From an uncultured Gemmatimonadales bacterium (GTDB lineage Bacteria; Gemmatimonadota; Gemmatimonadetes; Longimicrobiales; RSA9), in the NCBI GenBank assembly GCA_963798845.1, contig CAWCUS010000001.1, positions 672,001 to 736,000 on the forward strand: a stretch of DNA of 64,000 nucleotides, in the 5' to 3' direction. Shown piece by piece: positions 47,877-64,000 of this stretch. The notes below the pieces were generated by a model that did not search any database, was not told where the DNA came from, and was given only the letters and a program-made list of their open reading frames with translations. The first letter of the stretch is position 1; every line of letters starts with the position of its first letter. The position numbers and the translations under genes were made by a program.

Positions 47877-48060
47877 CCCCTCTGCGAGGGCGAAGCCCGA
47901 CCCCCTCTGCGAGGCCGAATGGCCGAGCCCCTCTGCGAGGCCGAATGGCCGAGCCCCTCTGCGAGGCCGAATGGCCGAGCCCCTCTGCGAGGGCGAAGCC
48001 CGAGCCCCTCTGCGAGGCCGAATGGCCGAGCCCCTCTGCGAGGCCGAATGGCCGAGCCCC
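47877..48060 (+). repeat. Intergenic tandem array A: 7 units of 25-26 nt (core CCCCTCTGCGA + hairpin + GAG)
   Basis: Hairpins GGGC-GAA-GCCC (units 1, 5) or GGCC-GAAT-GGCC (units 2-4, 6, 7); starts immediately after the TGA. Confidence 0.96.
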
Positions 48061-59325: not shown

Positions 59326-59802
59326 ATGGGAGGGACGGTCATCACCATCGAGTTCGATGGCAGGGAGGTATCCGTGACGCCATCCTCGACCTGCCCGGCG
59401 AAGAACGCCCCGGACGCGGCGTGCGCGGTCCACGGGTCGTTCGTGGACTGGGAGGAGAAGCCGAGGAACACGTTCCACTGGGCCGTGATCGTACTGGGGG
59501 ATGCGCCGTTCAAAAAGCAGGTCTTTTCCAACACCCGCGGCTGCGCCACGGGCGGCTACGTGGACACCGGCGAGGACGGAGAAGAGGTGGAGTACGTGGT
59601 GGTGGCGTGGAACGACTACGGCGCCCACAAGGTTCTCGACCCGGTGCTGGTGATCAAGGACCAGCCGCACCCGCCGACCACCTCCGCCTTCTACTCGATC
59701 CTGGACGGGATCCAGAGCCAGGCTCAGACGCTGTCGGAGGACCTCCAGCAGCTGGAAGCGATCGCTCGTCAGATCATTCCCGAGGAGGAGACGGCGTCGT
59801 AG
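59326..59802 (+). CDS. Hypothetical protein
   Basis: GGAG RBS, typical codon use, beta-rich core (EYVVV..LDPVLVI) and a helical tail; overlaps the convergent gene by 29 bp. Confidence 0.6.
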   Translation: MGGTVITIEFDGREVSVTPSSTCPAKNAPDAACAVHGSFVDWEEKPRNTFHWAVIVLGDAPFKKQVFSNTRGCATGGYVDTGEDGEEVEYVVVAWNDYGAHKVLDPVLVIKDQPHPPTTSAFYSILDGIQSQAQTLSEDLQQLEAIARQIIPEEETAS

Positions 59803-61711
59803 AGGCGGTCTCGGTTCCGAGGCCTACCAGGCGGAGGAACGCCGGGTCCGTGTGCAGCCCGTCGAACACCCAGTCCCGGGCCACCACGGCGGTGTCGGGA
59901 AGCTGGACCGCCAGCGCCATCCGGAGCAACCGGACTGCGCTGGCGCGGTCGTCCATCAGCAGTGCGACCTGCGCCTCGTCGTAGGCCAGCCCCGGCTGCG
60001 GCTCCGGGCCGCGTGCGCGGATAACGATCGCCCGGGCGCTGTCCGCCAGCCCGGCCCTCGCCGCCACCTTGGCCACCTGCATGATCGCCCACGCGCGGTA
60101 CGGCTGGCGCTGCGACGACGGCACCGTCGCCACCAGCGAGTCGACCAGCGCCCAGGCGCGGTCCACGTCGGGAGCCACCTGGGGGAAGGTCCCGAGCACG
60201 GTGAGGTCCAGCTGGATGAACCCGGAGTTGTCCGGGAACCGTGACCGGCCCTCGGCGACCTGCGTGATGATGGCGTCGTCAGGGCCGAACTGCAGCCCGC
60301 TGTAAGCGGCGGCGAAAAGCGCGTTCTCCTCCAGGTCGAGGAACTCGTCGGCGGCGATTGCGTGGTCGGCCGCGAGCTTCGCTTCCTCGAAGCGGCCCTG
60401 GTCCGTGAGCAGCTCGCTGAGGGCCTGCCACGCCCGGGCACTGCGGTCGTCGCGCTCCACGGCCAGCCGAAGGTCGGCCTCCGCCCTGGAACGGAGCGAG
60501 GCAAGCTCCGACCCCGAGGCACCCGTCGCCTGCGCCATCCGGACGAGCCCCCGCAGCTCCAGCGCCGCGGCGGTGTCCACAGATACGGCCAGCGCTCGCT
60601 CGGCGTGCGCCAGCGCCTGTGTGCACCAGGTCGGCGAGGGTGCCGTGGGGCTGCCCACGATGGAAGCCAGGTCGAGGGCGACGTGGCCACGCAGGAGCGC
60701 GGGCTGGTCCCAGGTGGGGTCCAGGTGCCCGGCCTTCGCCAGGAGCGTGTCGGCGCGCAGCAGCAGCGGCAGCCCGGCCTCCGCGTCCTCGCTGCGCAGG
60801 GCCCAGAAGTCCGTGTACAGGCGCTGGGCACGGCCCCAGAGCGCCCACGCCTCGTCGCTGGTGTTGCCCGCGCGCCGACGGCGGAGATCGAGCTCCCTCC
60901 CGAGGACCTTCCGGAGTGCGCGCGAGACCCCGCCCACGAGGCTGTCCTGGAGCGCGATCCAGGCGCCCACCGGCGCGTCCACGTAATCGCTGTGCAGGTG
61001 GCTCAGGTCGGAGCCGCGGATGAGCTGGAACGTGACCCGGATCTTCCCGTCCGGCCCCGGCGCAACGCTCCCTTCCACGATGCTTCCCGCCCGGAGCTCC
61101 GCCACGACCCTGTCCATGTCCACACGCTCGCCACGGAACCGCTTCACCCCGTTGCGCGAGATCACGTCCAGCGACCGGACCTGCCCGAGCTCGTGGATCA
61201 GCGCTTCGGTCAGCGCGTCGGCCAGGTACGCATATTCGCCGTTCGGCGTGTAGTCGTCGAAGTAGAGCACGGCCACGCGCGCGGGGTCGAGCGACACCGG
61301 GGCGATCACCGCCGCCGCATTCCCGGCGGAGGCCGCTTCCGACGTGCGCGGCCCCCAGACCTGCCAGCCGGTCACGCCCAGCGCCACGCTCAGCAGCACC
61401 ACGAGCAGCACGGCCAGCACGCGCCCACCGACCCCCAGCAGCTCTGAAAACCCCCGCCCCCGGTCCGCTCTAACCCCCTCGGTGGTGACCTGGAGCGCCC
61501 ACGCGAGGACCACGACGATCGGGAATCCCACGGCCGAGACCACCACCAGCAACGGGAGCAGCCATGACGGGAACTCCAGCGCCGACACCAGGATCGTGTC
61601 CACGAACTGGAGCACCGCGTACGCCCCGACCAGGTACAGGATGACCATCCTGGAAACGCGGCGGCGGCGCAGCTCGTCGAGAAATGACCGAAGACCCGAT
61701 CCAATGGGCAT
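59774..61711 (-). CDS. Membrane protein with 3 N-terminal TM helices, TolB-like domain and TPR repeats
   Basis: FLDELRRRRV..YLV..GFP...AW, VAVLYF..LADALTEALI..LDVISR, IVEGSV, TPR helices. Confidence 0.85.
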   Translation of the reverse strand: MPIGSGLRSFLDELRRRRVSRMVILYLVGAYAVLQFVDTILVSALEFPSWLLPLLVVVSAVGFPIVVVLAWALQVTTEGVRADRGRGFSELLGVGGRVLAVLLVVLLSVALGVTGWQVWGPRTSEAASAGNAAAVIAPVSLDPARVAVLYFDDYTPNGEYAYLADALTEALIHELGQVRSLDVISRNGVKRFRGERVDMDRVVAELRAGSIVEGSVAPGPDGKIRVTFQLIRGSDLSHLHSDYVDAPVGAWIALQDSLVGGVSRALRKVLGRELDLRRRRAGNTSDEAWALWGRAQRLYTDFWALRSEDAEAGLPLLLRADTLLAKAGHLDPTWDQPALLRGHVALDLASIVGSPTAPSPTWCTQALAHAERALAVSVDTAAALELRGLVRMAQATGASGSELASLRSRAEADLRLAVERDDRSARAWQALSELLTDQGRFEEAKLAADHAIAADEFLDLEENALFAAAYSGLQFGPDDAIITQVAEGRSRFPDNSGFIQLDLTVLGTFPQVAPDVDRAWALVDSLVATVPSSQRQPYRAWAIMQVAKVAARAGLADSARAIVIRARGPEPQPGLAYDEAQVALLMDDRASAVRLLRMALAVQLPDTAVVARDWVFDGLHTDPAFLRLVGLGTETASTTPSPPRE

Positions 61712-61797
61712 GGGGAGTCGTCTTCGGGTAGGGGGAAGCCATGGCGCCCGTATGCACTATGTCGGGGGAGGGGGTGCGGGGACAAGGGGGGTCTTGG

Positions 61798-61990
61798 CTC
61801 GGGCTTCGCCCTCGCAGAGGGGCTCGGCCCCTGCGGGGCCTCGCAGAGGGGCTCAGCCCCTGCGGGGGCTTCGCAGAGGGGCTCGGGCTTCGCCCTCGCA
61901 GAGGGGCTCGGCCCCTGCGGGGCCTCGCAGAGGGGCTCGGGCTTCGCCCTCGCAGAGGGGCTCAGCCCCTGCGGGGGCTTCGCAGAGGGG
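61798..61990 (-). repeat. Tandem array B: 7 units of 25-30 nt, same family as arrays A and C, on the minus strand
   Basis: + strand CTC-[GGGCTTCGCCC | GGCCCCTGCGGGGCC | AGCCCCTGCGGGGGCT]-TCGCAGAGGGG; unit order 25,29,30,25,29,25,30 nt. Confidence 0.96.
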
Positions 61991-62372
61991 CGGGGCCGGG
62001 CAGGTGGGGGGGGGAGCGGGTGAAGGCGTTGATCAGGCGGCGCAGGTCCAGCTTCACGTCCTTCAGGAGGCGGAGCGCGCAGAGGAGATCCTCGTTGGCG
62101 ACGGCGCCGACCGCCGTGAGGCTGCGGAGGGCGTGCTCGCATTCCACGGCCGAGCGGTGAGCATAACGATAGAGGCGGACCTTGTCGCCGGTGCTCATCT
62201 CGCCCAGGCCCTCGCCCACGTTGGTCACGACCGACGCCGCCGAGCGTTGCAGGTGATCGTTCGCCGGCTGCCTTGCCACCGCCGCCCGCCCTCCGAGCGA
62301 CTCCGCCATTCGGAGGACCTTTCGCGCCAGCCTGGCCACCCGCGGCTCCCGCGACCGCCCGCTTCTCACCAT
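61962..62372 (-). CDS. Four helix bundle protein (23S rRNA IVP / bAvd-like family)
   Basis: DHLQRSAASVVTNVGEG...DKVRLYRYAHRSAVEC...LRRLI matches the family pattern DQL.RAA.S...NIAEG...F..IA.GS..E; GGAG RBS. Confidence 0.82.
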   Translation of the reverse strand: MVRSGRSREPRVARLARKVLRMAESLGGRAAVARQPANDHLQRSAASVVTNVGEGLGEMSTGDKVRLYRYAHRSAVECEHALRSLTAVGAVANEDLLCALRLLKDVKLDLRRLINAFTRSPPHLPGPAPLRSPRRG

Positions 62373-62419
62373 GCTCCCACTCTACCCCTCCCCCCCGGCC
62401 ACAGCCATGGCTCGATGCG

Positions 62420-62642
62420 CCTCTGCGAGGCGAAGCCCGAACCCCTCTGCGAGGCGAAGCCCGAGCCCCTCTGCGAGGGCGAAGCCCGAGCCCCTCTGCG
62501 AGGCGAAGCCCGAGCCCCTCTGCGAGGGCAAAGCCCGAGCCCCTCTGCGAGGGCAAAGCCCGAGCCCCTCTGCGAGGGCGAAGCCCGAGCCCCTCTGCGA
62601 GGGCGTAGCCCGAGCCCCTCTGCGAGGGCGAAGCCCGAGCCC
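62420..62642 (+). repeat. Tandem array C: 9 units of about 24-25 nt
   Basis: CCCCTCTGCGA-(G)GGC-[GAA/AAA/GTA]-GCCC-GAG repeated; inverted relative to array B. Confidence 0.96.
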
Positions 62643-62774
62643 ACCCACCCCCCACCCCTTTCCCCGCCCCGCCCCCGCGCCCATCATCGAGGCGCCCCGC
62701 TCGCCATTGACCCGAGATGAACAGTTGCGCCCGCCGGCGGTCCGGGGGGGCGCCGCAGGAGCGACCGAAGGCCG

Positions 62775-64000
62775 ATGCCCGACCAGGATGAACGATACGG
62801 GGCGGTCCGCCCGCCGGAGGAGCTGAATCCTCGGCGGGAGGCGGCGCTCGACTTTCGCCAGCGAGCGCTCGGCGACATGACGCCGGCCGACTATGACGCC
62901 ATCGGCTTCCTCGCCGGGCTCGAGGTCCACCAGCAGCTTCTGACCACTTCGAAGCTCTTCTGCCGATGCCCTGCAGGCCGGCGTTTCGAGCACGCCGATG
63001 CCGAGGTGCTGCGCCACATGCGGCCCACGCTCAGCGAGCTGGGCGAGTACGACGGCACGGCGCTGATGGAGTTCAAGACGCGCAAGGAGATCGTCTACCT
63101 GCTGGAGCGGCGCACCGTCTGCACGTACGAGATGGACGACACGCCGCCGTTCCCGGTGGACGAGGAAGCGGTCCGCATCGCGGTCGAGCTGGCCATGCTC
63201 TTCGACCTGAAGCTGGTCTCGGAGCTCCACGTCATGCGCAAGCAGTATCTGGACGGCTCGATCCCCACGGGTTTCCAGCGCACGGCCATGGTCGGGCTCG
63301 GCGGCAGCGTCCCGTTCCGGGTCCCCGAGCTCGGCGTGGACCGGCCGCTCACCATCCGGCAGCTCTCGCTGGAGGAGGACTCCTGCCGCGAGGTCAGCGA
63401 CGTGGGCCACCGCATCGTGTTCCGCGCCGACCGCCTGGGCGTCCCCCTCACCGAGGTGGTCACGGAGCCCGAGCTGCGCACGCCCTGGGAGCTTCAGGCC
63501 GCAGGCCGCCTCATCGCAAGCGCCGCCCGTGCCACCGGCCACGTCCGCCGCGGCCCCGGCGCCGCCCGTCAGGACGTGAACGTCTCGGTCGCCGGCGGCA
63601 GGCGGGTGGAGATCAAGGGCGTGCCGCGCCACCGCGGGCTCCCGCTCCTCGTCCACATCGAGGCATTCCGGCAGCTCGCCCTGCTGCGCGTGCAGGCCGA
63701 GCTGGAGCGACGCGGCGTCACCACCGCCCTGCTCCCGCTGCCCGGCGACGATGCGCCGGCGTGGGAATCGTCGACGCTGGTGGCGGACGCGTCCGGCACC
63801 CTCGCCCGCACCGGCCACACCCCGCTGCGCAGTGCGCTGGACCGGGGCGAGACCGCCGTGGCCGTGCGGCTCCCGGGCTTCGCCGGACTGCTCGACCAGC
63901 CGACGCAGACGGGCATCCCCTTCGGTCGTGAGCTGGCGGAGCGGGTGCAGGTCATCGCGTGCCCGGTCCACCGTCCGTTCATGGCTTGGAACGGCAGTGC
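62775..64000 (+). CDS. gatE: Glu-tRNA(Gln) amidotransferase subunit GatE (archaeal type), truncated by the window end
   Basis: Manual translation: DYDAIGFLAGLEVHQQL..KLFCRCP, RPTLSELGEYD, MRKQYLDGSIPTGFQRT, LEEDSCR, DRLGVPLTE, RRGPGAARQDVNVS, VEIKGV; no stop seen before 64000. Confidence 0.88.
   Translation, partial: MPDQDERYGAVRPPEELNPRREAALDFRQRALGDMTPADYDAIGFLAGLEVHQQLLTTSKLFCRCPAGRRFEHADAEVLRHMRPTLSELGEYDGTALMEFKTRKEIVYLLERRTVCTYEMDDTPPFPVDEEAVRIAVELAMLFDLKLVSELHVMRKQYLDGSIPTGFQRTAMVGLGGSVPFRVPELGVDRPLTIRQLSLEEDSCREVSDVGHRIVFRADRLGVPLTEVVTEPELRTPWELQAAGRLIASAARATGHVRRGPGAARQDVNVSVAGGRRVEIKGVPRHRGLPLLVHIEAFRQLALLRVQAELERRGVTTALLPLPGDDAPAWESSTLVADASGTLARTGHTPLRSALDRGETAVAVRLPGFAGLLDQPTQTGIPFGRELAERVQVIACPVHRPFMAWNGS

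Follow-up and report, generated by a model that had tools for sequence, protein, structure and literature searches.

A gene at positions 61962-62372 (minus strand) of the window, i.e., the complete 64,000-nt stretch of DNA analyzed here, encodes a predicted four-helix-bundle protein and is enclosed by two inverted arrays of a hairpin repeat that occupies intergenic loci throughout the genome holding the window (termed G000). With a probability of roughly 0.55, we propose a REPtron-like maintenance function for the protein, in which it binds its own repeat as folded single-stranded DNA and keeps about 30 arrays growing from one end. That the protein likely keeps the repeats growing is suggested by the repeat filling intergenic gaps in carriers of genes from the same protein clade and having withered in a gene-less relative. 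The initial annotation had already suggested a REPtron-like unit. Clade-specific arms, co-occurrence of gene and repeat and decay of the arrays without the gene favor that suggestion, while the absence of the gene from 24 of the 25 array loci and the aged appearance of the arrays do not fit it in its original form.

The 136-aa open reading frame was confirmed in its position between array B (seven units, minus strand) and array C (nine units, plus strand), and its assignment to the IVP/Avd-like family held with scores above the curated cut-offs for Pfam PF05635 (39.9 bits, cut-off 33.8) and TIGR02436 (39.2 bits, cut-off 24), the core spanning approximately residues 11-117. An AlphaFold2 model of residues 1-118 comprises four long helices (H11-30, H35-55, H61-87, H93-117; pLDDT 92.7), and a profile of the 15 closest sequences matches PDB 2GSC (Xcc0516) at E 2.7e-9; the four-helix fold is predicted from this match together with the model. 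The protein is basic (K+R 25, D+E 12). PF05635 is present in 41 of the 61 genomes examined; to our knowledge, the family has no assigned function outside Avd, and we know of no catalytic site in the four-helix-bundle fold. As noted earlier, the stop codon (TCA at 61962-61964 on the plus strand) falls into a repeat unit of array B, which harbors the last 18 residues. This looks incidental and is probably a read-through accident, since the proteins end 0-5 residues past the last helix in the seven clade relatives listed.

With regard to homologs, a word search of a set of 5.8 billion proteins returned one hit out of 38 candidates, the query itself, while a full HMMER scan gave 279 hits, the best relatives sharing 41-49% identity. 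Single-protein locus scans yielded two weak matches in genome_contigs and none in metagenome_contigs, and the tandem DNA pattern had 0 metagenome matches. Short-read contigs matching positions 62237-62387 (0 differences) and 62162-62380 (1 difference) stem from two runs of one study and possibly from the source sample itself. Selection on the protein appears mixed, with a dN/dS of 0.46 in the closest pair and values of 0.29-1.16 in other pairs that are near saturation. Upstream of the gene, a one-mismatch copy of the motif GC[CT]AT-N6-GC[CG]C (62397-62411, minus strand) is followed, at a distance of six bases from the ATG, by a -10-like hexamer (62379-62384), and the two elements form a putative promoter. 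The motif precedes 27 of 78 bundle genes, with about 39 nt to the ATG, vs. 0 of 78 when the opposite strand is searched; read on the opposite strand, it presumably resembles a sigma-54 -24/-12 site.

The downstream arm, array B, extends from 61796 to 61990 on the minus strand, and the upstream arm, array C, from 62420 to 62642 on the plus strand, with a truncated innermost unit. The arms are thus arrays of some 200 nt with units of 21-30 nt, each unit composed of the constant linker CCCCTCTG and a variable mini-hairpin running from an initial C to a final G. The C-rich strands of both arrays point away from the gene. The cassette had been described as symmetric and built from a single repeat family; this is correct insofar as the arms are up to 100% complementary across 42 nt, but they have only one hairpin type in common, and the cassette is not a perfect palindrome, its symmetry being one of repeat family only. 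A CRISPR array was dismissed, since the variable parts are recurring hairpins of 13-22 nt and the neighbors are housekeeping genes.

Throughout G000, 235 inserts between linkers were parsed. They represent 65 distinct types with stems varying on both sides, and 198 of the 235 carry GA opposite GA at the closing. Loops of the form C-GNA-G (151) and C-GNNA-G (30) account for 181 of the inserts, compared with 14 and 0 on the other strand. DNA mini-hairpins of the sequences GCGNAGC and GCGNNAGC are described as extraordinarily stable and nuclease-resistant, one tested pair as poorly bound by SSB, and triloop mini-hairpins as far less stable in RNA form (PMC13037366), while CGAG blocks with sheared G:A pairs constitute a described DNA motif (PMC10085684). 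Since the loops and GA/GA closings of the repeat correspond to such documented stable DNA folds, we infer that its fold matters as single-stranded DNA. Folding programs revealed no clear preference of the units for DNA over RNA or for one strand. A GCA hairpin that the G000 units could alternatively form on their G-rich strand is missing from the linker of the related genome G381 and was set aside as incidental. A search of the cassette against Rfam produced chance miRNA matches only, none near the gathering score.

The repeats might also be GC-rich minisatellites that arose by slippage and bear no relation to the gene. Many arrays are indeed homogeneous internally, but slippage accounts neither for compensating stem changes over 65 insert types and strand-specific loops nor for one linker at 25 loci and the match of arms and repeat counts with the protein clade, and we regard this explanation as highly improbable.

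The layout of the cassette also recalls RNA-level elements like the intervening sequence (IVS) of 23S rRNA, in which case the arms would pair, RNase III would excise the element, the protein would bind RNA and spread would proceed via an RNA intermediate. The whole cassette is predicted to fold as one long stem (z -27, 20 shuffles), the Coxiella IVS combines inverted repeats at its termini and heptamer repeats with an S23p ORF (PMC4990558), and Avd is described to bind RNA together with a reverse transcriptase (PMC6182149). On the other hand, 20 of the 30 arrays in G000 are solo and therefore unable to form a long stem, triloop mini-hairpins are much weaker as RNA (PMC13037366), and the cassette resides between divergent genes outside rRNA. 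In addition, RVT_1 was not matched in G000 (96% complete), the sister genome G001, G381 or the complete genome G052, two matches in G005 being the only ones. An RNA-level element therefore appears improbable to us.

Regarding distribution, the recommended scan of the genome and its relatives returned 198 occurrences of GAGCCCCTCTGCG in G000, one for the reversed-pattern control and at most two in each of 60 relatives. In G000, 30 arrays of at least two units, 261 units in total, occupy 25 intergenic loci. Besides the 20 solo arrays there are five divergent pairs, one of which encloses the bundle gene, while the arrays of the four gene-less pairs are separated by 71-165 nt. As 24 of the 25 loci lack a bundle gene, the link between repeat and gene is genome-wide rather than local. 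All arrays are located between genes, the single apparent overlap being the tolQ-tolR gap, and most follow directly 3' of stop codons of housekeeping genes. An example in the window is a solo gene-less array of seven units of the same family (47877-48060, plus strand), which is situated right after a stop codon and before a thioredoxin gene; its orthologous site in G001 contains no relic above threshold. Among solo arrays in co-directional gaps, the strand behind the stop codon is the C-strand in eight cases and the G-strand in five. Replichore bias of the arrays was not assignable, the GC skew of G000 being too irregular. Of the 51 array neighbors scanned, none encodes a transposase or small nuclease; they are ordinary genes or lack a Pfam match. 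Together with the RVT_1 scans, this agrees with the earlier statement that transposase and reverse transcriptase are absent in cis.

Several observations concern the surroundings of these and similar arrays. The cassette is bordered by genes for a membrane/TPR protein (59774-61711, minus strand) and a GatB/GatE-family amidotransferase (62775-64000, plus strand, running off the window), both of which are host flanks outside the element and syntenic in G001. The amidotransferase scores higher on archaeal-type GatE models than on GatB, and an archaeal-type GatE is unusual in a bacterium. At G000:C2:829042-830343, tolQ is apparently frameshifted before the array pair, possibly by an assembly error, and the frame reads through the arrays. 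At G000:C5:380553-380730 there is a 25-copy heptamer array (GGGCTGA), with no bundle gene found alongside. G000 contains three bundle genes, namely that of the cassette, one in a slot at metH and one 3' of uvrB with degenerate arms; a fourth was not found in this genome. The metH-slot gene (G000:C6:1183340-1186190) has inverted arms from another hairpin family, whose repeat also occurs in frame at two places within the upstream metH gene and has a constant part that we take to resemble the tRNA T-loop words TTCGAATCC and TTCGACTCC. In relatives, the metH slot features bundle genes with arms of 6-7-mers.

When the 73 genomes of the family were searched with a profile, 13 matches turned up in 11 of them. 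Nine proteins from eight genomes group as one clade (SH-aLRT 96) in a phylogeny of 81 bundle proteins that is based on a short alignment and has many open forks. Hairpin arms with a TG|C foot accompany nine of nine clade proteins vs. none of the 72 other bundle proteins. Outside the clade, hairpin arms of other kinds flank nine proteins, and 6-9-mer arms of the same strand polarity accompany many of those left. Using a pattern designed from the clade's own arms, the eight of 73 family genomes that contain a clade gene took ranks 1-8 (213, 138, 82, 78, 73, 56, 45 and 32 matches), the other genomes having at most 29 with a median of 8. The two lowest clade counts (45 and 32) are near background, because the reversed control reaches up to 39 in some genomes. 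All four within-genus contrasts point in the same direction (213 vs. 6; 73 vs. 5; 45 vs. 29; 32-138 vs. 14 and 12), the eight clade genomes being kin from four genera and two gene-negative g5 genomes being 72-74% complete.

The arm motifs appear private to their genomes: that of G381 was counted 124 times vs. at most once in four other genomes, that of G005 60 times vs. 0 in four others and that of G036 68 times vs. at most three times in each of 60 others. The complete genome G052, with one bundle gene, contains 219 overlapping trimer matches, and in G033, 11 of 14 motif copies are located at the gene and three in a satellite 13 kb off. A slot beside one ABC transporter gene holds five clade members and is vacant in G000, and neither G000 nor G001 retains a bundle remnant at this ancestral position; the clade gene has moved to a new slot with its matching arms retained. 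Two loci without a bundle gene between the arrays were noted separately. In G001, a gene-less divergent pair (L138, C1:1171784-1172210) is present in a slot that holds a clade bundle gene in other genera, and its repeat resembles one adjoining a GxxExxY gene of G001. In G036, an ordinary small gene is bracketed by divergent arrays of the G036 hairpin family (L090, C7:291600-292600) at a distance of 2-4 kb from two bundle genes, which suggests local spread of these arrays.

The sister genome G001, a member of the same genus, offers a case of loss. Its locus corresponding to the window is syntenic, with some 90 nt of unrelated filler where the cassette would be, and it contains no clade gene. 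The comparison covered about 0.72 of 4.1 Mb, and two G000 loci (C2:273k and C6:889k) are without an orthologous pair in that portion; the other 23 of 25 were paired (21 plus two more), and intact arrays are found at 0 of them. Relics were detected at eight of 21 orthologous sites vs. five of 314 control gaps (p 6e-8), and at none of the remaining 13. The exact GAGCCCCTCTGCG motif occurs once in G001 vs. 198 times in G000. The orthologous sites are short and about 80% diverged, and no target-site duplication is evident by eye. G001 also lacks the metH-slot bundle gene, a 23-nt gap taking its place, and the respective motif is present twice as compared to 30 times in G000. Array loss in G001 is not an assembly artefact, because arrays particular to this genome persist there (18 matches in 0.72 Mb vs. 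four in the whole of G000), the direction of change resting on this one sister genome. REPINs are likewise described to decay once the RAYT is lost (10.1101/2021.07.10.451892).

Array loci were furthermore examined in G381 (11) and G005 (17). Among the 18 arrays syntenic with G000, seven are strictly at G000 array sites, as compared to a chance expectation of about 25 in 2373 gaps, and two more have one flank in common with a G000 site; the tolQ-tolR gap holds arrays in all three genomes. Sites common to different genera could be hot spots instead of inherited positions. The current linkers differ, being CCCCTCTG in G000, CCA(C/T)(C/A)CTG in G381 and CCTGTTG in G005, and a CCCCCTG linker is common to old units of G000 and G381 and still current in G463. 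Non-canonical linkers are unequally distributed between the 5' (inner) and 3' halves of arrays, with 34 of 127 vs. 0 of 127 in G000, 20 vs. 4 of 69 in G381 and 48 vs. 7 of 76 in G005 according to a first parse that can over-count the first unit, and with 28 vs. 6 of 111 (11 arrays to 1) according to a stricter parse, in which the 3' calls are mis-parsed hairpin interiors. The clustering of old linkers at the 5' end argues for one-sided growth; arrays would have been extended at the 3' end while the preferred linker changed genome-wide. The hairpin type at a given site is not conserved to a significant degree (mean rank 10.5 of 25, nine pairs, p 0.15), and given this value we do not claim that hairpins were kept while only linkers were swapped. 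The arrays give the impression of long-standing residents at conserved positions, rewritten and extended where they are, and not of freshly spread copies.

The position of the arrays, intergenic and mostly directly after housekeeping stop codons, and the conservation of sites across genera would also suit a host-useful binding protein that serves chromosome organization or acts at transcript ends, slippage-born arrays being kept and homogenized by selection for binding sites. The constant linker next to varied hairpins inside single G005 arrays can be read in the same way. Selection alone, however, would not lead one to expect decay on one side in three genomes, and a host function fits poorly with a gene that is found in only eight of 73 family genomes and has changed its slot, or with solo arrays that face either way behind co-directional stop codons (eight C-strand, five G-strand). 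We therefore judge a host-binding role to be rather unlikely.

A further explanation places the activity in another enzyme acting in trans (Y1/HUH, GxxExxY or DUF559), with the bundle gene as cargo that co-occurs by shared ancestry. Candidates exist, as G000 encodes four intact-looking Y1_Tnp-like proteins of about 350-470 codons, GxxExxY proteins and one DUF559 match, and the G036 case demonstrates that an ordinary gene can sit between divergent arrays. None of the four Y1 genes has a unit of the cassette's repeat family within 3 kb. Y1 is present in G001 with its decayed arrays, and no Y1 match was obtained in G036 with its abundant dispersed arrays; by gene content, Y1 transposases are thus neither adjacent nor apparently necessary. 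GxxExxY nucleases, which occur in all five genomes checked, could act in trans, but their genes carry other repeats, and DUF559 and GxxExxY genes are found in gene-positive and gene-negative genomes alike, including G001. The only GIY-YIG match in G000 belongs to a 659-aa frame, and a small GIY-YIG nuclease was not found there. Since, in addition, the matching arms were retained after the bundle gene had moved slot and none of the 51 scanned neighbors is a nuclease or transposase of such kinds, we hold an enzyme in trans with the bundle gene as mere cargo to be improbable.

Apart from this argument, the Y1_Tnp-like genes (G000:C1:549796, C5:284846, C5:399263 and C2:167346) have short flanking words in common, and words resembling GC[CT]AT-N6-GC[CG]C were seen by eye upstream of them. 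GxxExxY genes with their own flanking repeats are located at G000:C6:1344700-1345560 (L181) and 1353250-1353600 (L189) and at L182 and L188 of G001; the cassettes L189 and L182 are almost the same in both genomes, with a frameshift in the G000 copy.

For maintenance by the bundle protein, the reading that we prefer, we infer binding, strand, oligomer and chemistry as follows. The protein would form a basic pentamer, as do Xcc0516 and Avd, and would recognize the linker-TG|C junction together with the GNA/GNNA-capped, CGAG-closed hairpin on the C-rich strand while this strand is unpaired during replication or transcription. Bound units may stall or re-prime host replication or repair, such that an extra unit would be added on the 3' side. 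Units with a linker fitting the current protein would be copied preferentially, and with drift of the protein the linkers of all loci would change together; with the gene absent, arrays would shrink and decay. Any strand cutting would have to come from a host enzyme or an unrecognized active site.

More tentatively, and with appreciably less confidence than for the cassette itself, IVP/Avd-like bundle proteins may be the hitherto missing drivers behind a large class of tandem repeats in bacteria, with each variant extending its own arrays 3' at dozens of fixed sites and no known type of transposase, nuclease or reverse transcriptase taking part, such that an array would constitute a time-ordered record of past specificities. 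If the protein drives array growth, its gene would join RAYT and Ssn as a third kind of gene that keeps repeats, and the first that lacks a known catalytic fold; tandem repeats of bacteria that are so far unexplained, the 6-9-mer arrays next to other family members among them, would thereby be given a cause. The locus comes with a predicted ligand, with protein-repeat pairs from three genomes that can be matched or mismatched, and with a natural instance of loss.

No literature tying the bundle family to dispersed repeats was found in a search whose coverage excluded supplements and most subscription journals, and a term search of a 2026 preprint on non-coding element mining (10.64898/2026.09.22.753630) gave 0 hits; a prior description of the link is possible. 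Among known systems, the 23S rRNA IVS (S23p/Xcc0516) shares the protein family, an ORF within complementary ends and adjoining tandem repeats (PMC4990558; PMC10053308; PDB 2GSC), the terminal inverted repeats of the cassette being predicted to form a stem around the ORF as well. It differs in that the cassette is located between protein genes, has 200-nt hairpin arrays vs. a 28-bp IVS stem (PMC4990558) and is accompanied by 24 further gene-less loci. Avd of diversity-generating retroelements is a basic protein of a related family (PMC6182149; PMC10053308), and as a positively charged pentameric barrel it provides a precedent for nucleic acid binding (PMC6182149); a homopentameric ring is known for both Xcc0516 and Avd (PMC4990558; PMC6182149). 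In contrast to these retroelements, G000 lacks an RVT_1 match, and no template/variable repeat pair was seen in it.

The RAYT/TnpA-REP system resembles the cassette in its single-copy gene flanked by inverted tagged hairpin repeats (10.1101/2021.07.10.451892; PMC8266576; PMC3733652), in the dispersal of cognate repeats in intergenic DNA, mostly vertical inheritance and the occurrence of gene-less inverted pairs, and in the decay of repeats upon gene loss, observed here in the one sister genome. However, the protein enclosed here belongs to PF05635 and has no HUH/Y1 domain, and the foot is CCCCTCTG|C, a C-rich linker ending in TG, instead of a GTAG or CGTC tag. Further differences are the head-to-tail arrangement of units whose linker is constant and whose hairpins vary, the one-sided aging of the arrays and the genome-wide linker change at conserved sites. 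With Ssn and its SRM/NTS repeats, the cassette has in common that a small gene for a single domain lies between copies of its own hairpin repeat, the 5' part of which is conserved and unpaired, that the repeat is abundant where the gene is present and that protein-repeat pairs diverge together (PMC11893778). Ssn, however, is a GIY-YIG nuclease with demonstrated single-strand cleavage (PMC11893778), whereas the protein encoded here is a predicted four-helix bundle.
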